A program made the translations under genes and the position numbers. This document shows positions 2,286 to 21,302 of a DNA stretch of 64,000 bases, one piece after another (positions within the stretch are counted from its first letter, which is position 1; the number at the start of each line of letters is the position of its first letter). Under the pieces are notes generated by a model that was not told the DNA's origin, searched no databases, and worked only from the letters and a program-made list of their open reading frames with translations. The stretch comes from Anaerolineae bacterium (GTDB lineage: Bacteria; Chloroflexota; Anaerolineae; Anaerolineales; Villigracilaceae), in contig JAKLPV010000218.1 of NCBI GenBank assembly GCA_022013685.1, positions 5,213-69,212 of the forward strand. The letters are read 5' to 3'.

Positions 2286-2390
2286 AATGGCCTTGTTTTC
2301 AAAATTAAAATGGGCTCGTTTTCAATGTTAATTTTAATCTTGTAACTTACCAAATGGGCTTGTTTTCGAGTAAAAAGTGGGCTCGTTTTC
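2286..2390 (+). repeat. Four direct copies of AA(T/G)TGG(G/C)CT(C/T)GTTTTC at 2286-2300, 2309-2323, 2353-2367 and 2375-2390; probable IstA binding repeats of the IS right end
   Basis: Read directly from the sequence. All copies share one orientation and sit within ~110 nt downstream of istB. Confidence 0.7.
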
Positions 2391-2785
2391 GCTTGCAAAA
2401 AACATTTTATGCTGACACATCACAAGAAGAGATAGAACAGGTTTTTTTTGAAGATGCTTCCCGTGATCGTCTCCACATTCGCCTGATTGCCTTCGAATCC
2501 AATGAACTGGCTGGCACGATTATTTTACGCGAGCGCGGAAGTGTGACGTTACCAGAGTTCCAACCTGAATTAGGAGGATTATATGTCGTTGAGTCTCATC
2601 GAGGCCAAGGCATCGGCACAGAATTGGTTCGGGCAGGCATGAAATTGGCGCTAGATCAAGGTTATGAAACAATCTATGCAACAACCGTTGCAGCAGCAGG
2701 CATCCTGGAACAGCTAGGTTCGGAATTTATCAAAACAATCATTCATGAAGATGAGCAACTGGCATTGTATCGGTGTAAACTATAA
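2354..2785 (+). CDS. GNAT family N-acetyltransferase, probably N-terminally truncated by the IS, with its start codon lying inside the IS end
   Basis: Acetyl-CoA motif A is present (VESHRGQGIGTELV). The first ~15 codons overlap IS terminal repeat copies 3 and 4, and the expected first beta-strand region of the GNAT fold appears to be missing. Confidence 0.55.
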   Translation: MGLFSSKKWARFRLQKTFYADTSQEEIEQVFFEDASRDRLHIRLIAFESNELAGTIILRERGSVTLPEFQPELGGLYVVESHRGQGIGTELVRAGMKLALDQGYETIYATTVAAAGILEQLGSEFIKTIIHEDEQLALYRCKL

Positions 2786-2862
2786 ATGCTGCCCAACGCG
2801 GCATGCACGCGGGCCATTGGGCTACATTTCAGGCACACAACCGTATAGGTCTATATCCAAGA

Positions 2863-3375
2863 ATGATGATTGTCCAGATTCAGCCCATCGAGCCGCAACA
2901 GATTACAGAGGCCAAGCGAGTCATCTTGTCCTTGGCGCGGAACATCTTCCAATGGCAAGCTTCGCTTGACGAGATCATCAAGCGATCCGATGAACAGGGA
3001 GACATCCTCGACTTGGATAACCCTCAAACGCATTACTTCGATCGCCAGGGCTTGTTCCTCGTAGCCCTGGACCAAGGACGAGTGATCGGCACGGGCGCGA
3101 TCCGCCGGCTGGAGGGGGATACGGCAGAACTGAAACGATTATGGTTATTGGAAGCCTATCAGGGGCACGGCATTGGATATCAATTAATGCAGACGTTATT
3201 GCGCTTCGCGCAAACTACAGGCTACAGATGCATCCGCTTGCAGACCGACCGGAAACAGGATCGCGCCATACGCTTTTACAAACGGGTTGGGTTTCAGCCC
3301 ATCAAATGCGACAGCGATGACCCGGACGACATTTGTATGGAGATGGTTCTCTCTCCATTTACAAAGTGTTCTTGA
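2863..3375 (+). CDS. GNAT family N-acetyltransferase
   Basis: Motif A LLEAYQGHGIGYQLM, ~170 aa. Start chosen at the internal ATG 2863 (MMIVQIQP...). Confidence 0.85.
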   Translation: MMIVQIQPIEPQQITEAKRVILSLARNIFQWQASLDEIIKRSDEQGDILDLDNPQTHYFDRQGLFLVALDQGRVIGTGAIRRLEGDTAELKRLWLLEAYQGHGIGYQLMQTLLRFAQTTGYRCIRLQTDRKQDRAIRFYKRVGFQPIKCDSDDPDDICMEMVLSPFTKCS

Positions 3376-8438: not shown

Positions 8439-9644
8439 TTAATCCATTTGCAATACTTCGCGGATTTTCGGCAAAGCCCAGTCAATGGTCTCTTTGTCAA
8501 TCACCAGCGGCGGCGCAAAGCGGATAACGTGGTCGTGGGTCTCTTTAGCCAGGATGCCGCGCGCCTTGAGCGCTTCGCAGAAACGACGCGCACCGCCCGC
8601 AGCCGGGTGCAGTTCGACGCCGATCAGCAGGCCGCGTCCGCGCACTTCTTTAACGTGCTTGCTGGGGACTTCGCTCAACTGCTCGATGAAGTAATTGCCC
8701 AGTTCGTTGGCGCGTTCATCCAGTTTTTCATCGCGTAAGACGCCGATGGCAGCCCTGCCGATCGCGGCAGCCAGCGGGTTGCCGCCAAAAGTCGAGCCGT
8801 GCTCGCCGGGTTGGAACAGGCCCATCAAGTCCGCATCCGCCAGCACAGCCGAGATCGGATAGAAACCGCCCGAAAGCGCCTTGCCGATGATAACCATATC
8901 AGGCCGAACGCCTTCTTCATGCTGGAAGGCAAATTTTCGACCCGTGCGGCACAGACCGGTCTGGATTTCGTCCACGATCAACAGAACGTTGTGCTTTTTG
9001 CAGATTTCAGCAACCTTCTTCAGGTAACCCTTGGGTGGAATAACCACCCCGGCTTCGCCCTGGATTGGCTCGATCGAAATGGCGGCCGTGTTGGGGGTGA
9101 TGGCTTTTTCAAAAGCTTCAGCGTCGCCATAGGGAACCGTCACAAATCCGGGGGTGAAGGGGCCAAAATCATCCCGATAAAGCGGTTCGGTCGAGAACGA
9201 GATGATGGTGGTGGTGCGCCCGTGGAAGTTGCCTTCAACGGTGATGATCTCAGCCTGGTGACGCGGCACACCCTTGACGCGATAGGCCCACTTGCGGGCT
9301 AGTTTGATGGCGGTTTCAACCGCTTCGGCGCCGGAGTTCATCGGCAGCGACATTTCGTAGCCGCTAAATTCGGAGAGTTCCTTGTAAAACAAGGGCAGTT
9401 GGTCATTGCGGAAAGCGCGCGAGGTCAGGGTGACCTTTTTGGCCTGTTCAAGCATGGCATTTAGAATGCGCGGGTGAACGTGGCCCTGATTGACCGCCGA
9501 ATAAGCGGAAAGACAATCTAAAAATTTGTTGCCATCTACATCGTATACCCAGGCGCCCTCAGCCTGCTCGATGACCACGTCAAGCGGATGATAGTTATGC
9601 GCGCCGTACTGTTCTTCAATTTCAATAAACTGTTGGGTTTTCAT
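8439..9644 (-). CDS. rocD: ornithine--oxo-acid aminotransferase
   Basis: EEQYGAHNYHPLDVV...EGAWVYDVDGNKFLDCLSAYSAVNQGH is the classic ornithine aminotransferase N-terminus. Start moved to ATG 9644, which has a GAAAGG ribosome-binding site. Confidence 0.9.
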   Translation of the reverse strand: MKTQQFIEIEEQYGAHNYHPLDVVIEQAEGAWVYDVDGNKFLDCLSAYSAVNQGHVHPRILNAMLEQAKKVTLTSRAFRNDQLPLFYKELSEFSGYEMSLPMNSGAEAVETAIKLARKWAYRVKGVPRHQAEIITVEGNFHGRTTTIISFSTEPLYRDDFGPFTPGFVTVPYGDAEAFEKAITPNTAAISIEPIQGEAGVVIPPKGYLKKVAEICKKHNVLLIVDEIQTGLCRTGRKFAFQHEEGVRPDMVIIGKALSGGFYPISAVLADADLMGLFQPGEHGSTFGGNPLAAAIGRAAIGVLRDEKLDERANELGNYFIEQLSEVPSKHVKEVRGRGLLIGVELHPAAGGARRFCEALKARGILAKETHDHVIRFAPPLVIDKETIDWALPKIREVLQMD

Positions 9645-9667
9645 TTGTTGCCTTTCTGTGTATGGTG

Positions 9668-9697
9668 AGAGCGAAATTGCCCCGAGCGCCACGCAGT
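9668..9697 (-). repeat. 31-nt motif CAGCCTCTCGACTGCG(T/C)GGCGCTCGGGGCAA in the rocD leader
   Basis: Matches 10753-10783 at 30 of 31 positions, same orientation; lies 24-53 nt upstream of the rocD ATG. Confidence 0.8.
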
Positions 9698-9729
9698 CGA
9701 GAGGCTGAAAAGAACCCCCACCCCGGCCT

Positions 9730-9770
9730 CCCCCAGTTTCCGCCGGTTGTCGAGACGCGGAAACTGGGGG
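9730..9770 (-). terminator. 14-bp stem-loop between argF and rocD (terminator or attenuator candidate)
   Basis: CCCCCAGTTTCCGC/GCGGAAACTGGGGG with a 13-nt loop. The T-rich tract on the minus strand is not immediately adjacent. Confidence 0.4.
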
Positions 9771-9796
9771 AGGGTGCCCGGAGGGCGGGAGGGGGT

Positions 9797-10720
9797 TTAT
9801 GCCACTTCCAATAAACGAGCCAGTACCGCCTTCTGTGCATGCAGGCGATTATGAGCCTGCGGAAAAATCGCCGAATGTGGGCCATCGGCCACATCGTCGG
9901 TCAGTTCGTGGTTGCGATGGGCCGGGAGGCAGTGCATGACGATCACATCCTTGTCGGCTTCGCTGACCAGTTTGGCGTTGACCTGGTAAGGCGGGAAGAC
10001 GGCTTCACGTTTGGCGGTTTCTTCTTCCTGGCCCATACTGGTCCAGGTGTCGGTGTAGATGACTTGCGCGCCCTTGACCGCTTCGTGCGGATCGGTCAGC
10101 AGATTGATCTTCGCGCCGCTGACGGCAGCCAGTTTCTTGCCAGTTTCGATGGCTACAACCGGCATGTCGTAGCCGTCCGGGTTGGCAATCGTGAAATTCG
10201 CGCCAAGCATGACCGCGATGTGCATCAGCGAAACAGCAACGTTGTTGCCATCGCCAACATACGAGACAGTCAGGCCCTTCATTGAGCCAAACTTCTCAAT
10301 AATCGTCTGAGCATCGGCCATCGCTTGGCAGGGATGGCTGAAATCGCTCAAGCCGTTGATGACCGGCACCGACGACCACTTGGCCAACTCGACAACATGG
10401 GCATGCTCGAAGACGCGCGCCATCATCACCTGGACATAGCCAGACATGACACGGGCAATATCCGCAATCGATTCGCGTTTACCAAGGCCGATTTCATTGG
10501 GGGAAAGGTAGATCGCGTCGCCACCCATATGGCGCATGGCCATATCGAACGAAACACGCGTGCGCAGGCTGGGCTTCTGGAAGATCATGCCCAACACTTT
10601 GCCCTTGAACAAGGGCGGGTTGCCATGCTCGAAATATTCCTTTTTCAAGCGGATGGCCAAATCTAAAATGTCTTGGATTTCTGCCGGGGAAGTATCGGCA
10701 ACGTCGAGGAAGTGTTTCAT
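9797..10720 (-). CDS. argF: ornithine carbamoyltransferase
   Basis: [20 protein letters not shown] and HCLPAHR motifs; 307 aa; AAGGAG ribosome-binding site. Confidence 0.93.
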
Positions 10721-10902: not shown

Positions 10903-11805
10903 TTAGAGCCTGAACTTCCTCCAATATCTTTGCAACCCGTCCGCGCTCATGCCGAGCGGGTTGGCCAGCAGGTAGGCTTCGCGCACGTCGGCGGGCAGGC
11001 CAATCGCGCGGCCCTGTTCTTCCATCCAATCGACAAATTTTAGGCGCAATTCTTCGATCGGCGGGTCCGCGGGCATGACCCGCTCCAGCCAGGCGTTAAC
11101 ATCGTTCAAGACCCGGTGAATGGCCGGGAAATGCCATTCGGGGTCGTCGAAAATGCCAAAATGGGTCGGGACAACATGGCGCGCGTTCAGGGCTTGCAGT
11201 TTGTCGATTGAAGCGTGCCAGCGTTCAATGTGCAGTTCGGGCGGCACAAAGGGCAGGCGCAGGTAGGGGTAAGTCGAAATGCGGATACCGCCCACATCGC
11301 CGGTAAAGCAGTAGCCATCCACAAAATATGAAACATGATGTTCGGCGTGACCCGGCGTATCGAGCGCCAGCACCTTCAGGCTGCCGCCCAGGGAGGTTTC
11401 GTCGCCGTCCTGCAGAATCGTCAGTTTTTCGGGCGCAACCGGCAAAAAGTCACCCCACAGACTGTGCATTTTATCGCCATAAATGCGCGTGGCCGAGGCG
11501 ATCAGCTTTTCAGGGTTGAGCAAATGCGGCGCGCCGTTGGAATGCACAAAAACCTGCGCCCCGCGCGTAGATAAAAGCCCGGCCGCCCCGGCATGGTCGA
11601 GATGGATATGGGTCAGGAAAACATGAGTGACGTCTTGCAAACCATAGCCCAGCACGGCCAGCGCCCGCTCCAGGGCCGGGACGGTCGAACCGGGACCCGA
11701 TTCAACCAGCGCAACCCCGTCCGCATGCGGAATTGCATAGGCCGCAATCGCGCTCGCCTGGCCCTGAAAGTCTAAATCGAGAGGCTGGATAGTTGTTTTC
11801 GCCAT
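10903..11805 (-). CDS. MBL-fold metallo-hydrolase
   Basis: THIHLDHAGA (HxHxDH) motif. Start moved to ATG 11805 (MAKTTIQPLD...). Confidence 0.85.
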   Translation of the reverse strand: MAKTTIQPLDLDFQGQASAIAAYAIPHADGVALVESGPGSTVPALERALAVLGYGLQDVTHVFLTHIHLDHAGAAGLLSTRGAQVFVHSNGAPHLLNPEKLIASATRIYGDKMHSLWGDFLPVAPEKLTILQDGDETSLGGSLKVLALDTPGHAEHHVSYFVDGYCFTGDVGGIRISTYPYLRLPFVPPELHIERWHASIDKLQALNARHVVPTHFGIFDDPEWHFPAIHRVLNDVNAWLERVMPADPPIEELRLKFVDWMEEQGRAIGLPADVREAYLLANPLGMSADGLQRYWRKFRL

Positions 11806-14223: not shown

Positions 14224-16899
14224 ATGATGAAACCCTTCTCCGGCAAACACACTTGGTTATTGTTTTTAACAGCCCTGACCCTCCTGGCAGGCCTGGGCGC
14301 GGCCATGTACGACTATCTGGGGCCTGATCGCACCGTCACTGAAAGCAATGTCGAAACCTATGATTACGGAGTGTGGGCAAAACCAAATTATATTGACCCT
14401 GCAACAGGTGAGTGTGCCTGCAAAAAAGCCGGCCAACCAGACGTATGCGCAGATGGCTGCATTGTTTGCTCTTGGGAAAGAGCCCCCGGCAACGCCTGCG
14501 GAGACGCCACCTACTGGTACAAACTCGGCACGCAGTCCGAAGTCGTCACCACCACCCGCACCTACCCCGAAGCCAGCATCAGCGGCGCTTTACAATCTTG
14601 CGCACTGCATAACGGCTGGTGCGCGACATCGCCTTTTCTCTCACTAACGGCCAACGAACCGGTTGCAGGCCATCAAATCCTGCTGCTGGAAGGCACGCGC
14701 AATGGCGAGATATTCGCCTGCGCGAGTACGGGCTGCGATATTCCCCTGCTGGAAGGCGAAAACACCTTCACCTATTGGGCGCTTTCCGATTGGGGAGATA
14801 GCTCACGCATGGGTAACCTCAGCGCCAGGGTGGACACCCAACCGCCACAGATAGACGGCGCAATGAGCGGGACACCGGGCGAAGCGGGCTGGTATGTCTC
14901 ACCGGTGACCTTTTCCGCCTCGGCTTCCGACCCCCAGCCTGCTTCAGGCATCCAGGCATTTTCCTACGCCCTGATCGACGGCGCATGGACAGCCTATACC
15001 GCGCCTGTGATCGTGGGCGATGGCGCTCATTCGATCATCTTTCGCGCCCAGGATGTTGCCGGGCACATACTCGAAATCAGCCAGGCGGTGCAGGTCGATA
15101 CGCTCCCGCCGCAAGTTTCTGGTGCGCTCAGCGGCGAGCAGATAAATGGATGGTATCTCTCGCAAGTGACGTTCTCCGCCTCGGCGGTTGACACAGGTTC
15201 GGGTGTCGCGCGAATTGAATACAGCCTTGGCGGGGACGCATGGCAACCGTATAATGCGCCTGTGATGATTGGCGATGGCATCCACAGCCTGCGCACACGC
15301 GCCCTCGACGTGGCGGGCAACACCGTCGAAGGGGAAACTTTATCCTTCCAGGTGGATGGCGCCTCTCCGCGCATTCAACTGACTGAGTCCTGGCATATTT
15401 GGGAAAGCGGCAGCTTGCAAGTGAACGATGGCGGCAGCGGGCTGGCAGGCGTGGAAATTGAAATCCGCGACCCGCAGGGCAGGTGGCAAAAAGTGTCACG
15501 TGCTCATGAAACCAACGGGCAAGCTTTCGCCACCAATATCACCTGGAACAGAAAATTTGCAGACGGCACAATCGCTCCCATTGGCGCATACCAGGTGGTC
15601 ATCAAGGCTTCTGACTACGCCGGGAATATGAGCAGCGAGACGGCCAGTATCTTCATCCCCGCGCCCAATGCACCGACCTATCCACCCGCGCCAACCCGGA
15701 CACCGGTCACAACCGCCACTGGCGTTCGGGTGGTTGCACTTATGCCCTCAGCAACAATCACAGCCACACGGACGCCAGTTGTTTCCACCTTTGGCCTTGC
15801 GCCGCCAGTTGTTTCCGCTGCGCAGGCTTCTGTCCCCTCGACCAGTGGCGGGCAAGACCTGTGGGGCGCGGCGGCGCTGGCAGCGATCAGTGGAGCAACC
15901 GCATACGCGCTCGAACAACAACGCCAGCGCAAGGAAGAGGAAGCCCGCCAGGCCGCCGAAGCCGCGCAAAAAGCCGCCAGCCTGAACGCCGCCGCGGCCC
16001 AGGCCAAGGTGCAGAACTACCTGCAAGGCAAGGCCATGCTCGAGGCGCAACTGGCGCAATCCGCTTCCCATCATGGCCAGGACGCCAAACTCGAACGCGA
16101 AGAAGGCAAAGAAGAAATCGCCTGGGAAGCCTGGAAAGACCGCTCCCAACTCCTGGCCGCGCAACGGGCCGAGGTAGAACGGCAGAGACAGGCACAAGAA
16201 GATGCTAATCGCACCTACGCTGCCCTGCGCGAGAAGGGACAGTCCATCACTGTTACTGCGCCAAAGGAAAAACCGTGGTGGACTTTGCCATCCTTTTCTT
16301 TTCCTGAGCGCGAGGCCAAGTTGTTAGCAGAAAAAATACCTTCGATTGGTATTACCAATGGACGAAAGCAAGAACCGGTGTTTAAATTTTTGGCTCCGCC
16401 CAGTCTCGTTTCTTTTGGAGCAATTACCAGGTATCGATTTACAAGCAATGCAAATCCAGGTGCAGAATTACGAATAGATGGAATTGGAGCCGGCAACATT
16501 TATGAAGCTAATCAACCAGCATTGATGGCGAGGGCCAATTTTGACACTGGTGAGCTTGTTGCAAAAGTGAGGGTTCCATCGGAACTTAATTTTACAAAAG
16601 GTGGATTTTCATGTTCTGCTGGTTATTCTGCCAATATGTATATCCAGTGGAAAGGGATTTATTCAACAATTGGCGCGGATATTAATTATGCTGACATAAA
16701 TGCCAAAGGAGCAGGTGTAAAGGGCAATATAAGCAAGGGGGCATATGTAGAGGTTCAACCAGCGCCGATACTAGCCGCAGCTGCTCTTGCTACAATAGTG
16801 GTATTTACACCGTTTGATGAACTCGTTGCTTTAGGGGCAGCAGGATTGAAAGCATTACAAGAGGCAGGCCGCATACTGCAACCTGCATTTGAACGTTGA
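14224..16899 (+). CDS. Large envelope protein: N-terminal signal anchor, Cys-rich region, three repeated Ig-like modules, Pro/Thr linker, TM helix, charged coiled coil, and an unknown low-GC-encoded C-terminal domain
   Basis: Internal repeats VDT.PPQ..G..SG....GWY.S.VTFSASA.D..SG......Y.L..G.W..Y.APV..GDG.HS...RA.D.AG start at 14829 and 15094, with a third related module at 15352. The TM segment is LWGAAALAAISGATAYAL. Start placed at ATGATG 14224. Confidence 0.8.
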   Translation: MMKPFSGKHTWLLFLTALTLLAGLGAAMYDYLGPDRTVTESNVETYDYGVWAKPNYIDPATGECACKKAGQPDVCADGCIVCSWERAPGNACGDATYWYKLGTQSEVVTTTRTYPEASISGALQSCALHNGWCATSPFLSLTANEPVAGHQILLLEGTRNGEIFACASTGCDIPLLEGENTFTYWALSDWGDSSRMGNLSARVDTQPPQIDGAMSGTPGEAGWYVSPVTFSASASDPQPASGIQAFSYALIDGAWTAYTAPVIVGDGAHSIIFRAQDVAGHILEISQAVQVDTLPPQVSGALSGEQINGWYLSQVTFSASAVDTGSGVARIEYSLGGDAWQPYNAPVMIGDGIHSLRTRALDVAGNTVEGETLSFQVDGASPRIQLTESWHIWESGSLQVNDGGSGLAGVEIEIRDPQGRWQKVSRAHETNGQAFATNITWNRKFADGTIAPIGAYQVVIKASDYAGNMSSETASIFIPAPNAPTYPPAPTRTPVTTATGVRVVALMPSATITATRTPVVSTFGLAPPVVSAAQASVPSTSGGQDLWGAAALAAISGATAYALEQQRQRKEEEARQAAEAAQKAASLNAAAAQAKVQNYLQGKAMLEAQLAQSASHHGQDAKLEREEGKEEIAWEAWKDRSQLLAAQRAEVERQRQAQEDANRTYAALREKGQSITVTAPKEKPWWTLPSFSFPEREAKLLAEKIPSIGITNGRKQEPVFKFLAPPSLVSFGAITRYRFTSNANPGAELRIDGIGAGNIYEANQPALMARANFDTGELVAKVRVPSELNFTKGGFSCSAGYSANMYIQWKGIYSTIGADINYADINAKGAGVKGNISKGAYVEVQPAPILAAAALATIVVFTPFDELVALGAAGLKALQEAGRILQPAFER

Positions 16900-16910
16900 G
16901 GTTAAGTCTA

Positions 16911-17672
16911 ATGTCTACTGAATTGAAAAATAAACTTTACTTGCAACTTGTTCATGGTAATTATGAAATAGGAAATGATATAGTAGAACAAGCGAAGTTT
17001 GACACAGAGCTAAATTGCATTTTGTTTTTAGCTTCTGTTGGAAAAAAAAGGCTAATTTATAAATGTCAACCTTTGCTATCGGAAAACCAGGCTTGGCGAA
17101 CTGACAATAATAGTGCTGTTTGCTATGAGGCCAAGGCAGTGGCTGCTTATATTCAGGGCGATTTAGAAAACGCACATAATCACTCTTCGCAAGCCTTGGA
17201 ACTTAATTCAAATGCTTTTTTTCCCCGCGCCATTTTATCTGAAATGGCAATAAATGAGCGAGATTATAAAAACGGTATTAGATATTATCGAGAAATTCTG
17301 GATATATACCCCTCACATAATAATACTTTGCTGAATTTAGCAAATGTTCTTCTTCTTGCAAAAGGAGATTATGACGAAATTCTTAGCTATGTAAAAAAGT
17401 CGAAAAAATCATTGCGGCGTGACCTGTATTTGTTTCTTATTCCTTTTGGCAAACCGTTTGCTCGCTTTATTTGGCTCTTCATTGCGTTACCGTTATTCTT
17501 AATTCCTGTGGTTGGCAATTACATATTTCTTCTACTGACTATAGTTCTTGTTGCCATTGGCCTGGTTACACTCAAAAAAATTGGGCTCGATGTTCTTATC
17601 ATTACTCGGTTGTTTGCACTGCAAATTATTTCTACCCTAATTTGGATGTTATCATTGCTTTTATCCAGATAA
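16911..17672 (+). CDS. TPR-like repeat protein with a C-terminal multi-pass membrane region
   Basis: TPR-like segments (AYIQGDLENAHNHSSQALELNSN..., YKNGIRYYREILDIYPSHNNTL) are followed by ~3 hydrophobic helices. DNA is ~30% GC. A TTG at 16896 overlaps the upstream stop codon. Confidence 0.7.
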   Translation: MSTELKNKLYLQLVHGNYEIGNDIVEQAKFDTELNCILFLASVGKKRLIYKCQPLLSENQAWRTDNNSAVCYEAKAVAAYIQGDLENAHNHSSQALELNSNAFFPRAILSEMAINERDYKNGIRYYREILDIYPSHNNTLLNLANVLLLAKGDYDEILSYVKKSKKSLRRDLYLFLIPFGKPFARFIWLFIALPLFLIPVVGNYIFLLLTIVLVAIGLVTLKKIGLDVLIITRLFALQIISTLIWMLSLLLSR

Positions 17673-17704
17673 TTTTTTGCTCGCCTGCTTTGGTAAATAA
17701 TAAA

Positions 17705-18682
17705 ATGATGAAAAATATCAAATTTATCCTATCGTTTTTCTTCTTTGTTGCCTTTCTCTCTGCTTGTGATTTGGCAGTAGATTCAAACGTCGTGTTAAGG
17801 AAATCGCCAGATTATGTGCGTGTTGAGAGAGGTAATATTTCCGACTTGGCCTTTTCGCCCGACAGTAATTTTCTGGCAACTTCTTCGAGCCATGAAATAT
17901 TCTTTTACAACGCGAAGACACTTGAAGAAATGCATGTTTCAGTATCAGATTCAGATGTTATTGAGATTGCTTTTTCTCCAGACAGTTCTCTGTTGGCCTC
18001 CGGTCACTGGAATCATACTGTGCAGTTATGGGATGTTCGTACCGGACAAAATGTAAAAACCTTGAGAGGTCATACTCAATGGGTCAACAGTGTAGCCTTT
18101 TCTCCTGATGGACTGTTGCTTGCCTCCGCTTCGCTCGATCGAACGGTACATGTTTGGGATGTTGAGAGTGGACAGGCTTTGCGGGTTCTCGATGACTTTG
18201 ATGAATGGGTTCGCAGTGTCGCGTTTTCGCCTAACGGCTTATTCCTTGCCGTTGGCGCGGAAGATAAAATGGTAAGGATATGGGAAATTGAAACCTGGCG
18301 CAAAGTAGGGGAATTATCTCATGATTATGGCGTTGGCACAGTGGCATTTTCACCGGATGGTTCCTTACTGGCATCTGATTCAAACGAAACGGTGCAGCTT
18401 TGGGAAGTTGATACATGGCGTAAGATACGCGTGCTCAATCTGAATTCCTGCCAGGCAAATCGGACAGTATTTTCTCCCGATGGAACATTCCTTGCCGTAG
18501 GTTGTCTTGAAGACACCATACAAATATGGGATGTTGCCACCGGACAATTGGAAACTGAGGTGGACGGAAATTCTGACTTGGTTAATAAGTTAGCTTTTTC
18601 GGCGGATGGGCGTTTGCTTGCCTCGGGCACATTTTCTCGTGATAAAACCATATGGTTTTGGGAAATTATTCGGCAGGAATAA
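17705..18682 (+). CDS. WD40 beta-propeller lipoprotein
   Basis: Signal peptide with lipobox (FFFFVAFLSAC). About 7 WD40 repeats (AFSPD...LAS....VQLWDV). Start at ATG 17705; the listed longer ORF is an upstream extension. Confidence 0.85.
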   Translation: MMKNIKFILSFFFFVAFLSACDLAVDSNVVLRKSPDYVRVERGNISDLAFSPDSNFLATSSSHEIFFYNAKTLEEMHVSVSDSDVIEIAFSPDSSLLASGHWNHTVQLWDVRTGQNVKTLRGHTQWVNSVAFSPDGLLLASASLDRTVHVWDVESGQALRVLDDFDEWVRSVAFSPNGLFLAVGAEDKMVRIWEIETWRKVGELSHDYGVGTVAFSPDGSLLASDSNETVQLWEVDTWRKIRVLNLNSCQANRTVFSPDGTFLAVGCLEDTIQIWDVATGQLETEVDGNSDLVNKLAFSADGRLLASGTFSRDKTIWFWEIIRQE

Positions 18683-18699
18683 TTACAAAGTTTCTCTCA

Positions 18700-19107
18700 A
18701 TGGTTTGTTTCATGTTTTATACCATCCTCGAAACCCACTGGCCGAAACTGGCCCTGCTCTTAACCCTGACTCTGTTTGCTGGGCTGCTCTTTGCGCCCGC
18801 TCTCGCACAGGGATTTGCCACGCCTTTTATTGTCCTGACTCTGGGTATGGGTATCCTGCTGCTAGCCCTGCGCAACTGGCGATCTCACCGCGCCGGGAAG
18901 TTGTCCGGGCTCGAACTGGTGCGTAATGTCTTTGTTGAGACGGCTTGCCTATTGCTGGTTTTCGTTCTGGCGCGTTTTGTGGGCAGGCATGTGGCGGGCT
19001 TTGTTGGCGAAGGGTATGGTTGGCGGCTGGCGCTGCTGTCTGCGCTTTTGGTCGGCGTGGCGGCGGGATTAGCTGTCCAAAAGACCTTGGGCAAGTTGGT
19101 CAAGTAG
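18700..19107 (+). CDS. Small multi-pass membrane protein, function unknown
   Basis: Hydrophobic segments throughout; GC content returns to the host level; its C-terminal end has a diverged copy at 19722-19830. Confidence 0.55.
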   Translation: MVCFMFYTILETHWPKLALLLTLTLFAGLLFAPALAQGFATPFIVLTLGMGILLLALRNWRSHRAGKLSGLELVRNVFVETACLLLVFVLARFVGRHVAGFVGEGYGWRLALLSALLVGVAAGLAVQKTLGKLVK

Positions 19108-19137
19108 CAAAAACAGCGAAAATCAGCTTTATTGGGA

Positions 19138-19620
19138 AAATGGGAAAGCTTTCTCCACCAATATCACCTGGAACAGAAAATTTACAGACGGCACAATCGC
19201 TCCCATTGGCGCATACCAGGTCGTCATCAAGGCTTCTGACTACGCCGGGAATATGAGCAGCGAGACGGCCAGTATCTTCATCCTCGCGCCCAACGCACGA
19301 ACCCGGACACCGGTCACAACCGCCACTGCCACTGGCGTTCAGGTGGTTGCACTTATGCCCTCAGCAACAATTACAGCCACACGGACGCTGGTTGTTTCCA
19401 CCTTTGGCCCTGCGCCTCCAATTTTTTCCGCTGCGCAGGCGTCCGTCCCCGTCACCAGTGGCGGGCAAGGCCTGTGGGGCGGCAGTTAGCGGAGCAACAA
19501 CGCCAGCGCAAGAAAGATGAAGCCAAGCCGCGCAAAAGGCAACCAGTCTGAACGCCGCAGCCGCCCAAGCCAAAATCGAGAACTATCCGTAAGGCAAGGC
19601 CATGCTCGAAATCACCATCA
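19138..19620 (+). pseudogene. Decayed fragment paralogous to 15515-16055 of the large envelope protein gene
   Basis: Nucleotide alignment by eye shows long identical runs (e.g. ccaccaatatcacctggaacagaaaattt, ggcttctgactacgccgggaatatgagcagcgagacggccagtatcttcatcc). Several deletions are present, including most of the TM segment, plus in-frame stops. Confidence 0.85.
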
Positions 19621-19721
19621 GGAACTCTGGATTGAGCGAGGCAGAGAAGAAGGCCAGCGAAGAAAGTGCCAAGATTAATGGCATAGTTCTTCGACAAGTT
19701 CAGGAACCGCTGGGCTGATGG

Positions 19722-19830
19722 CTCTGTTATCCACGCTGGTTGTGGGGTTGGGGCGGGACTGGCTGTCCAGAAGACTTTGGAGAAATTGGTCAAAAAAGAT
19801 AAGTCCCCCTATACGTTGAGCTTCAAGTAA
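19722..19830 (+). pseudogene. Fragment paralogous to the 3' end of the small membrane protein gene (19017-19107)
   Basis: AGLAVQKTLEKLVKKDKSPYTLSFK* here versus AGLAVQKTLGKLVK* there. The upstream part (LMALLSTLVVG versus LALLSALLVG) is offset by a frameshift. Confidence 0.6.
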
Positions 19831-19907: not shown

Positions 19908-19936
19908 TTGACATACTGTTTTATACACAGTATAAT
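19908..19936 (+). promoter_or_regulatory. Consensus sigma70-type promoter with an embedded palindrome (candidate PadR operator)
   Basis: TTGACA-17 nt-TATAAT. The spacer contains ACTGT-N7-ACAGT. It lies 18 nt upstream of the padR ATG. Confidence 0.65.
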
Positions 19937-19953: not shown

Positions 19954-20286
19954 ATGACAAACAATACTCTGCTTGAAAACAATATTCTTGAACTGCGACG
20001 CGGCGTGATCGTGCTGGCAGTACTCAGTCAACTGGGTGAGGAGCAGTATGGCTATTCCCTGCTGAAACTGCTCTCAGACCAGGGTTTGGAACTCGACCAG
20101 GGCACCCTCTACCCACTCTTACGCCGGTTAGAGTCGCAAGGGTTGCTTGAATCGGTCTGGAAACTCGAAGAAGCGCGCCCTCGCCGTTATTACGTGATCA
20201 GCGCTGCGGGCAAAGAAATTTTGCCGCAACTTAAAAACGAATGGGCTGGCATCATCGCCATGATGGACAGGATACTGGCCCGATAA
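19954..20286 (+). CDS. PadR family transcriptional regulator
   Basis: YGYSLLKLL....L....GTLYPLLRRLESQGLLES.W......RRYY pattern; 110 aa. Confidence 0.9.
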   Translation: MTNNTLLENNILELRRGVIVLAVLSQLGEEQYGYSLLKLLSDQGLELDQGTLYPLLRRLESQGLLESVWKLEEARPRRYYVISAAGKEILPQLKNEWAGIIAMMDRILAR

Positions 20287-20297
20287 AGGAGAAAACT

Positions 20298-21302
20298 ATG
20301 AATCTTATTGACCGTTACATCCAGCACGTCGGCAAACACCTGCCCGAAAAATCACGCGAAGACCTGAAGCGCGAAATCCGCTCGCTGGTCGAAGACAGCC
20401 TCGAAGATCGCAGCCGTGAACTCGGCCGCAAGGTGGACACCGCCATGACCGTGGATGTGCTCAAGGAATTTGGCCGCCCTGAAAAAATGGCCGCCTCCTA
20501 CACGCCGGAGCGCTACCTGATCAGCCCGCGCCTATATCCCATCTTCTGGTTGGTAGTCAGGATCGTAATGACCGTCCTGTTTGCCATTATGCTGGTCAAA
20601 CTCTTCATCGGCATCACGCAGGTCGACGCCAATTTTGTCCAACTGATCATTCAAACGGTGACAGGGTTTGCATCTGGAGCCATCTCTGCGCTAGGGAACA
20701 TCGTCATCGTATTTGCTGTCATCCAGTACTTCGCCCCCGATCTGAGCAAAGAACTTGACAAGGACGATGACTGGGATCCGCTCAAGATGGAAAAAATTGA
20801 AGATGAAGACCAGGTCAGCCGGGTCGAGCAGGCTTTTGGAATCACCTTCAGCGTCATCGGGTTGGCCGTGTTCAATTTCTTTCCAGAATTGCTCGGATTC
20901 GGCGCTACCAGCAATGGCGAATGGATTTTCCTGCCTGCGCTTTCAGAAGCCTTCTTCACCTACCTGCCATGGATCAATCTGCTCTGGGGCGCAGAAATCA
21001 TTCTGAGCCTGTTCCTGCTCATTCAGGGACAATGGCAGACCGCCACCCGCTGGGTCTCGATCGCCATCAAAATCATGACGGTTGGATTAGCCGGCTTCAT
21101 GCTGGCCGGGCCGTCGCTGGTGGGTCTGAATCTGCAAGACATGGTTGCCTCCGGGATTGGCTTCACGCTCGAAACAGCTACCAGACTGGTTTCACTGTTC
21201 AAACAGGTTGTTACTGTTACACTGGCGCTGATCATCGTGTTGGACGGTTTCTCAATCGTCAAGCGCATCTACAAATTCGCCGTCAAACGCAGTGGCAGCT
21301 AA
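20298..21302 (+). CDS. PadR-associated membrane protein with an N-terminal HAAS/DUF1700-like domain
   Basis: N-terminus MNLIDRYIQHVGKHLPEKSREDLKREIRSLVEDSLEDR is followed by multiple TM helices. AAAGGAG ribosome-binding site before ATG 20298. Confidence 0.75.
   Translation: MNLIDRYIQHVGKHLPEKSREDLKREIRSLVEDSLEDRSRELGRKVDTAMTVDVLKEFGRPEKMAASYTPERYLISPRLYPIFWLVVRIVMTVLFAIMLVKLFIGITQVDANFVQLIIQTVTGFASGAISALGNIVIVFAVIQYFAPDLSKELDKDDDWDPLKMEKIEDEDQVSRVEQAFGITFSVIGLAVFNFFPELLGFGATSNGEWIFLPALSEAFFTYLPWINLLWGAEIILSLFLLIQGQWQTATRWVSIAIKIMTVGLAGFMLAGPSLVGLNLQDMVASGIGFTLETATRLVSLFKQVVTVTLALIIVLDGFSIVKRIYKFAVKRSGS

Follow-up and report, generated by a model that had tools for sequence, protein, structure and literature searches.

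The described systems closest to the subject of this study are the Rhs/YD-repeat toxins, the CdiA/CdiI proteins of contact-dependent inhibition (CDI) and the Sec-dependent polymorphic toxins. Our subject is a low-GC cassette within a 64-kb stretch of DNA (64,000 nucleotides (nt), hereafter the window) from a contig of an Anaerolineae bacterium (Chloroflexota). The cassette contains only three open reading frames (ORFs), namely the distal part, or tail, of the C-terminal region (CT) of a large envelope protein, which we call the carrier, a gene for a protein with TPR repeats and transmembrane (TM) helices (the TPR-TM gene), and a gene for a WD40 lipoprotein. Anaerolineae are filamentous bacteria that abound in sludge, sediments and mats; to our knowledge almost nothing is known about competition and kin recognition among them. 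The cassette appears to have arisen by the exchange of a CT and its partner genes in a polymorphic toxin-like system on an apparently undescribed carrier, and toxicity, immunity and delivery are what we infer for this system from its sequence.

The Rhs toxins resemble the window locus in their conserved body, variable C-terminal tip and cognate downstream gene, in the lower GC content of tips and partners, and in displaced orphan tips that keep a piece of the conserved region. In the rhs elements of E. coli, the tips and partner genes are markedly lower in GC than the core. However, Pfam and motif searches found neither YD repeats, nor the PxxxxDPxGL motif, nor an RHS match in the carrier, and no type VI secretion system (T6SS) or Tc context was seen; the carrier instead consists of immunoglobulin (Ig)-like, OmpL47-type domains, with a TM helix and a coiled coil before the tip. 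The CdiA/CdiI systems are alike in their surface carrier, a conserved motif that marks the start of the variable CT, their CT/immunity modules and their orphan arrays, but Pfam and motif searches of the window locus found no two-partner secretion (TPS) domain, FHA repeats, CdiB or VENN motif, and the host is a Chloroflexota bacterium. According to PMC11630599, some CdiA-CTs insert into membranes (ionophoric CTs), and membrane immunity proteins that are highly polymorphic neutralise them; this pair is the nearest analogy for a tail with hydrophobic helices and a partner with three TM helices, although the tail is modelled as mostly β-strand and not as a five-helix bundle. According to passages of Zhang et al. 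(2012; PMC3482391), the Sec-dependent polymorphic toxins share with the family described below a signal-peptide carrier, AHH and Ntox44 CTs and an Imm11 partner; these passages list Imm11 with Tox-AHH and Chloroflexi among the hosts. The extracellular body of the carrier is like that of the OmpL47-type (Big_13) surface proteins, with a Pfam Big_13 match and a match in two stretches to NCBIfam barrel_OmpL47 (NF047446; 113.8 bits against a cut-off of 40), whereas it remains well below the cut-off of the Leptospira OmpL47 equivalog (51.5 against 250 bits). We know of no exchangeable C-terminal modules in OmpL47 proteins.

With respect to the general definition of polymorphic toxins, four of the five features that can be tested from sequence appear to be present, and the locus belongs to neither Rhs nor CDI (nor was PT-TG found). 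An immunity gene directly after the toxin is seen in the related locus L088, in which Imm11 follows AHH (L numbers denote loci or contigs and P numbers proteins); the TPR-TM gene of the window is a candidate by conserved adjacency only. Neither a carrier composed of OmpL47/Big_13 domains, a proline/threonine (P/T) stalk, a TM helix, a coiled coil and the motif NWLQGKAML nor a CT class of the kind described below (KPWW β-meander) was found described in a full-text literature search or in the passages of PMC3482391 that were searched, an absence that is not proof of novelty.

The cassette is sharply delimited by its composition. In a 200-nt profile, the GC content is 0.56-0.70 before approximately 16200, 0.31-0.49 across 16250-18700 and 0.56-0.58 at 18700-18900. 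The interval 16324-18682 has a GC content of 40.9%, compared with a mean of 56.5% (standard deviation 2.3, minimum 50.4) for the remaining 2359-nt segments of the 64 kb (z = -6.8). The GC content at third codon positions (GC3) is 0.31 in the tail, 0.31 in the TPR-TM gene and 0.40 in the WD40 gene, compared with 0.62-0.81 in the flanking genes and other long ORFs. The original prediction, an earlier reading of the letters of this DNA, had described a low-GC interval at 16250-18720; we measured 41.0% GC for it, and its count of 14 G+C in 16921-16980 is exact. Its left edge of 16250, with approximately 215 foreign codons, must be corrected. A maximum-likelihood change-point of GC3 in the frame of the carrier gene falls at codon 701, nt 16324 (±2 codons), where GC3 changes from 0.64 to 0.28; this edge lies approximately 70 nt further right and leaves approximately 191 codons, and it is the position at which 85% nucleotide identity to another copy of the cassette (L002) begins. 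The return to host GC that was predicted at approximately 18720 agrees with the recovery seen by 18700-18900, although we place the right edge at the stop codon of the WD40 gene, 18682. The original prediction had also proposed sliding-window GC and codon-usage statistics, with amino-acid composition as the competing cause of the low GC. GC and GC3 both shift, and because GC3 changes, the low GC is not an amino-acid effect. A local mutational cause is ruled out as well, since copies of the cassette that are 84-85% identical to it lie between flanks unrelated to those of the window.

The sequence at the left joint is informative with regard to the mode of acquisition. The tail has 27 homologous representatives in an exhaustive HMMER scan of 1.84 billion representatives, and its class forms the C-terminus of five full-length carriers that share the Ig body, TM helix and coil (P0128, P0139, P0142, P0145 and P0150). 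The class follows the pattern KPWW...IPSxG...R.P.P...ISFGTVT...NP...DG...GYS...W.G.WNTTV..D.NY.DV...G.G.KGN.S.G.YVEVKP, then a hydrophobic helix, then TPFDE. The host-GC sequence just 5′ of the joint, KPWWTLPSFSFPEREAKL, corresponds to the N-terminal end of the tail class as seen in P0125 and P0128, and the putative left crossover is inside a resident CT that already belonged to this class. Because the resident KPWW sequence is already of the tail class, the event would therefore be a homologous or homeologous allelic replacement and not a random insertion. The AlphaFold2 model of the tail (pLDDT 78, pTM 0.62) consists of one helix, nine long antiparallel strands and two C-terminal helices. 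Foldseek found nothing significant for this model (best E-value 0.016 in PDB and 0.0035 in BFVD; TM-scores of 0.27 or less), and we made no use of weak matches to a porin, a gasdermin and a levivirus maturation protein. Searches of the tail against Pfam, and against PDB by sequence and profile, gave no match. The original prediction had named a housekeeping fold of the tail as an argument against its proposal, and the Foldseek and profile searches found no such fold.

Copies of the cassette occur on other contigs. L001 (9890-11777) and L002 (378-1989) match it at 84-85% nucleotide identity, and their flanks are unrelated to the window. L001, an 18.5-kb contig of 56.6% GC, matches window positions 16805-18682 at 84% and shows a GC dip of 0.34-0.45 within flanks of 0.56-0.66, at a housekeeping-like site between a Pyridox_ox_2 gene and tRNA-His/HisRS. 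The tail is reduced there to its last ~30 codons, and the WD40 copy, with 86% amino-acid identity to the window protein, has a premature TGA at codon 146 (position 11235; CGA in the window) and is not called as a gene; the TPR-TM gene is the only cassette gene that is intact. The junction between the WD40 gene and a homologue of the next window gene (gene X, see below) is the same in L001 as in the window. L001 may be a degraded family locus that lost its carrier gene, and its Pyridox_ox_2 gene (9227-9805) is 58-62% identical to one in L086 (8349-8921), which lies 1.1 kb upstream of a carrier gene. In L002 (2 kb), 85% identity extends from window nt 16324, and the tail is a stand-alone ORF of 203 amino acids (aa) after unrelated DNA of 53% GC. 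A third contig, L083 (DATLYK010000136.1; 4 kb, 41% GC), contains a degenerate family gene (motif ADYLGPDRT) followed by TM proteins, and an orphan CT of the tail class (49% aa identity) that retains a coil remnant and KPKPWW, with a TPR-TM gene (34% aa identity) directly 3′. This contig is binned as the archaeon Candidatus Nitrosotenuis and carries an Anaerolineae-type carrier and orphan modules; it is probably mis-binned. Synonymous divergence among the cassette copies is 0.27-0.52, and the ratio of nonsynonymous to synonymous substitution rates (dN/dS) is 0.36 for the tail, 0.33-0.44 for the TPR-TM gene and 0.16 for the WD40 gene. When the JGI metagenome contigs were scanned for exact occurrences of a conserved 21-base motif of the cassette, the only match was due to chance, L084 (APRT and glucose-1-P adenylyltransferase genes). 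The modules are drawn by recombination from a low-GC pool that is common to several genomes.

The exchange of CTs is a general property of the carrier family. The carrier body has more than 100 homologues; where a source name or record title is given, it mostly points to Anaerolineae or Chloroflexota, and the exception is a set of actinobacterial OmpL47-type proteins that match the Ig region only. The family loci comprise 80 retrieved GTDB loci, which come from metagenome-assembled genomes (MAGs) and are nearly all labelled Chloroflexota, and L085-L089. The neighbours of the carrier in the window are MoxR/DUF58 and PadR genes, a context that is shared by none of the 80 GTDB loci nor by L085-L089. 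Because no retrieved locus shares this context, a test for different tips at the same locus was replaced by a family-wide comparison of body and CT. With body and coil removed, 64 proteins yield 26 CT clusters. P0006, P0013, P0014, P0015 and P0045 have Ig segments that are 87-96% identical, yet they carry five unrelated CTs. Toxin domains above the Pfam gathering score form the CTs of P0071 (AHH, 32.2 bits against 22.3), P0043 (Ntox44, 42.5 against 24) and P0024 (Phage_lysozyme, 55.8 against 22.3); other members have a LysM domain (P0044) or have an HExxH-like motif (P0010 and a protein of L038). The CT of the window itself matches no Pfam toxin family. In L088, an Imm11 gene (28.1 bits against a cut-off of 22.1) lies 12 nt after the AHH member P0071. 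The same P0071 has at aa ~690-960, between its coil and its CT, a long helical region with repeated units of the type MEHSPEAK.W, and two hydrophobic segments precede its nuclease domain.

Orphan modules, that is, extra copies of the TM-coil segment, were found in seven of 42 loci. L037 contains, in order, a carrier, a lipoprotein, an orphan (linker, TM helix, coil and variant CT), a second lipoprotein and a third coil fragment; L086 and L087 contain three to four modules, and the orphans of both start within the last Ig domain (query aa ~397-417), close to the point at which an orphan in the window begins (aa 431; copy B, below). In addition, the GC content of the 2.5 kb after the TM-coil segment is on average 12.2 ± 4.5 points below that of the body (34 loci), with a drop of more than 5 points in 32 of the 34; the drop of 17 points in the window is large but not unique among them. 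The original prediction of a conserved body joined to an exchangeable foreign C-terminus and partner genes is thus borne out at the level of the family by the CT clusters, the toxin CTs, Imm11 and the orphans. It had also suggested comparing related genomes for conservation before approximately 16050 and variation in the tail and downstream genes. The alignment of close homologues ends at query aa 609-613; this point coincides with the end of the repeat copy A described below and lies near 16044, and CTs and partner genes differ between relatives. Two further genes were seen near carriers of the family: an IS200-like Y1 transposase gene in L085 (13416-13835), 2.7 kb downstream of the P0004 carrier locus, and a gene with TIR and Tricorn/PD40 Pfam matches in L086 (1-54), approximately 10 kb upstream of the carrier gene.

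The window itself retains traces of an older module. A direct repeat of ~530 nt, which is missing from the original prediction, brackets the cassette (copies A and B, Table 1). The two copies share 91.4% identity over 465 aligned nt, and six indels (-18, +6, -11, -3, -20 and -13 nt) break the frame of copy B and delete most of its TM helix; copy B also has an in-frame TAA. An ORF of 78 aa at 19253-19489 is a piece of this decayed orphan and could be mis-annotated as a gene. The ~100 nt after copy B encode ITIRNSGLSEAEKKASEESAKING, which resembles the sequence that follows the junction in P0043, LQNANLSDEEKAALKEYAKTNG, and a remnant of the 3′ end of a gene like X follows at 19712-19830. Gene X, which lies between the cassette and copy B, encodes a protein with 80% aa identity (77% nt) to that of a gene two positions downstream of the Ntox44-bearing carrier in L089; weaker homologues occur in L027, L032, L033 and L001, and PADLOC and NCBIfam gave no match for it. 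Within the remnant, 19712-19793 is ~72% identical in nucleotides to 19021-19103, and the remnant is 77% identical to the X gene of L089. The L089 carrier is P0043, and its body is only 39% identical to that of the window carrier. At the DNA level, L089 and the window match in two blocks only, a 48-nt junction (85-90%, to both copies) at L089 5107-5154 (window 16000-16047 and 19571-19610) and gene X (77%) at L089 6752-7144 (window 18721-19113). Because the junction and gene X are conserved in spite of divergent bodies, they look like conserved arms, and candidate recombination arms, around a swappable unit, which would span 16044-18711. The remnant at 19610-19830 would fit a deletion running from the start of the older CT into the older X gene. 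Furthermore, copy A, module, gene X and copy B stand in the order expected if an incoming module had been circularised and then integrated by a single crossover at the conserved segment.

The partner genes were also compared among the loci. The original prediction described a TPR membrane protein whose alternative TTG start overlaps the upstream stop codon, and a WD40 lipoprotein. These descriptions hold with respect to Pfam and to the lipoprotein signal, LSAC, which was read from the sequence. The TTG at 16896 does overlap the stop codon, but the start of the TPR-TM gene is probably the ATG at 16911, in agreement with the NCBI product P0121. The protein has three TM helices at its C-terminal end, and its TPR part has no signal peptide. 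Only two close relatives were found among 5.8 billion proteins searched. The gene is paired with a tail-class CT in the window, L002 and L083, an adjacency that holds across 34-73% identity (L002, L083), and weakly so in L042, L043 and L054, in which orphan fragments precede TPR-TM-like genes and their membership in the tail class is weak (best E-value 0.15, L042). Partners that resemble β-propellers or are lipoproteins follow the CTs in L037, L038, L042 and L043; Pfam confirms one of them (PD40 in L042, 22.4 bits against 20.9). In PADLOC and NCBIfam, the TPR-TM and WD40 proteins gave only weak or generic repeat matches and no component of anti-phage defence. We consider the TPR-TM protein to be the best immunity candidate because it stays with tail-class CTs, is intact in the degraded L001, and has three TM helices without a signal peptide.

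The carrier begins with a hydrophobic signal/anchor (aa 10-28; the consensus there among relatives is ...ALADYLGPDRT), which is followed by a Cys-rich region, OmpL47-type Ig-like domains, a P/T stalk, a TM helix, a coiled coil, the junction and the CT. The single TM helix (aa 546-564, 15859-15915) has the sequence LWGAAALAAISGATAYAL and is followed by EQQRQRKEEE and the charged coiled coil; the conserved junction NYLQGKAML lies after the coil, at 16015-16041. According to the positive-inside rule, the CT should lie on the cytoplasmic side, behind a stop-transfer helix and RQRK. The original prediction had placed the C-terminal domain there too, and the positive-inside topology agrees with it as far as a topology prediction can tell. 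Its remark that no known toxin, immunity, PT-TG or VENN-type motif is recognisable in the locus is matched by negative Pfam and motif searches.

Taken together, we believe that the interval is probably the distal part of an exchangeable CT module of a polymorphic toxin-like envelope system, with the tail as effector, the TPR-TM protein as protector and the WD40 protein as accessory. The carrier would be exported by its signal/anchor, display its Cys-rich and Ig-like domains on the P/T stalk and cross the membrane once. A diverged allele from a low-GC donor would have replaced the CT from codon 701 onwards together with the TPR-TM and WD40 genes, with the left crossover falling within a resident CT that belonged to this class and the right end abutting gene X; an earlier swap of modules at the junction would have left the decayed orphan at 19139-19830. 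The tail-class CT would be a variable effector that ends in membrane-seeking helices, for which the pore-forming colicins provide a further functional analogy, the TPR-TM protein would be a cognate immunity-like protector at the cytoplasmic face of the membrane, and the WD40 lipoprotein may be an extracytoplasmic accessory. The membrane topology, the recombination route and the delivery of the CT to a target cell are what we infer. If this reading is true, Anaerolineae carry a widespread polymorphic effector system with its own demarcation motif and a carrier architecture that is absent from the literature searched, its effector/partner modules make up a low-GC pool that travels from genome to genome, and at least one of its effector folds is without a known relative. 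One contig would then show a fresh allelic replacement with a joint at base-pair level, conserved flanking arms and a decaying displaced module, and the position of the effector behind a TM helix raises a concrete question of delivery. A more specific version, which we offer tentatively and hold to be rather improbable, is a new effector system of filamentous Chloroflexota in which the effector is parked on the cytoplasmic side of a single TM helix and coiled coil, beneath an Ig-like surface stalk, and the KPWW β-meander is a new membrane-active fold with TPR-TM immunity. Such an effector could be released or exported only when the extracellular part contacts a neighbour, by a logic of secretion arrest without a type V, VI or VII secretion system (T5SS, T6SS or T7SS), or it could be fired inside the producer as a suicide effector coupled to a surface sensor.

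Several observations weigh against a toxin-like function. The tail model is without a match in PDB or BFVD, and Pfam, PADLOC and NCBIfam gave no toxin, immunity or defence family for the tail, the TPR-TM protein or the WD40 protein. It would be unusual for a delivered toxin to lie on the cytoplasmic side, and neither an export route nor a secretion apparatus is evident nearby; the predicted topologies also vary among relatives, with zero, one or two further hydrophobic segments before the CT. The dN/dS values of 0.16-0.44 indicate purifying and not diversifying selection, the cassette is unattached to any carrier gene in L001 and L002, and no true syntenic orthologous locus was found. The absence of toxin or immunity signatures and of a fold match, the purifying selection on all three genes, and a CT that seems not to leave the side of the producer would also agree with a module that is exchangeable but no weapon. 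The tail would then be a membrane-anchoring or assembly domain, the TPR-TM protein a chaperone or assembly partner and the WD40 protein a scaffold (TPR and WD40 proteins are typical scaffolds), and the swaps would serve surface variation in kin recognition or in escape from phages or predators. We consider this explanation unlikely, given that the same position of the carrier holds bona fide toxin domains, in one relative with a matching immunity gene, that orphan arrays and CT swaps on near-identical bodies are hallmarks of conflict systems, and that the TPR-TM gene alone is intact in the degraded L001, in the manner of orphan immunity.

The joint argues against a generic low-GC mobile islet that landed by chance in the 3′ end of a gene, with an accidental in-frame fusion. 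The fusion keeps the reading frame and falls within a resident domain that belongs to the class of the tail, homologues of the tail form the C-termini of full-length members of the family, and loci across the family generally drop in GC after the coil. Moreover, no inverted or direct repeats were found at the cassette edges in the repeat search of the window, no tRNA was found in the 64 kb, and no integrase or transposase was counted with the cassette, so that none of the marks of a mobile element (recombinase, attachment (att) sites or terminal repeats, tRNA target) is associated with it in the window; blastn of the cassette against plasmids and phages gave no match. Although the cassette of L001 lies away from a carrier and beside tRNA-His, and the tail of L002 is a stand-alone ORF, we regard a chance landing as quite doubtful. 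It is very unlikely that the DNA of a low-GC organism was stitched into a high-GC contig during metagenome assembly. The window is indeed a MAG contig, and the fused carrier protein was found on a single contig only. However, such a chimera requires two joins, the sequences to the left and right of the cassette are host-like and come from a single locus (copies A and B, gene X and its remnant X′), and L001, an independent assembly, has the same junction between the WD40 gene and an X-like gene within DNA of ~57% GC. The exchange of a CT module in a polymorphic toxin-like system remains the explanation that we favour, and the features of the carrier locus are collected in Table 1.

Table 1. Features of the carrier locus, given as feature, position in the window, strand and basis.
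Carrier gene, 891 aa, NCBI L6461_22545 (MAG Anaerolineae bacterium)	14224..16899	+	ORF; exact match to P0001
Repeat copy A: end of last Ig-like domain, P/T linker, TM helix, coil, junction	15514..16043	+	Direct-repeat families D1, D2, D4, D10, D11; alignments
Proximal CT, host-like GC: coil extension and KPWW motif (aa 608-700)	16044..16323	+	GC3 0.60; homologous to P0004, P0009, P0010, P0015
Low-GC cassette, horizontally acquired: distal CT and two partner genes	16324..18682	+	GC, GC3, nucleotide identity to L001/L002
Distal CT, tail (aa 701-891): long-stranded antiparallel β-meander and C-terminal hydrophobic helix pair; TM-like stretch 16759-16815	16324..16899	+	Homologues; AlphaFold2 model
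TPR-TM protein, three TM helices; candidate immunity protein or partner of the tail	16911..17672	+	Pfam TPR; ATG 16911 = NCBI product P0121, 253 aa
Seven-repeat WD40 lipoprotein, signal peptide with lipobox LSAC; putative accessory partner	17705..18682	+	Pfam WD40 5.9e-58, 7 stretches
Gene X: small multi-TM protein, host GC, weakly DUF3054-like; likely start 18700 or 18712	18652..19107	+	GC3 0.62; homologues
Repeat copy B: decayed orphan of Ig end, linker, TM helix, coil, junction	19139..19609	+	Alignment to copy A
Remnant of displaced older module: older CT start ITIRNSGLSEAEKKASEESAKING (like P0043/P0015) and X-like 3′ end GAGLAVQKTLEKLVKK...	19610..19830	+	Translations; comparison with P0043, P0006, P0013, P0015

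Other features were also noted in the window. At its start, 80-2082, an IS21-like pair was recognised by eye only, with a transposase-like ORF (80-1327) and an IstB-like ATPase (1330-2082, LGNPGLGKTHL); two GNAT-like ORFs, likewise seen only by eye, follow at 2354-3375 in a stretch of 47% GC. Downstream of the older remnant, a perfect sigma-70 consensus (TTGACA, a 17-nt spacer and TATAAT) is present at 19908-19936 in a spacer of 34% GC upstream of the PadR gene (19954-20286), which is followed and overlapped by a gene for a HAAS-domain membrane protein (20241-21302).

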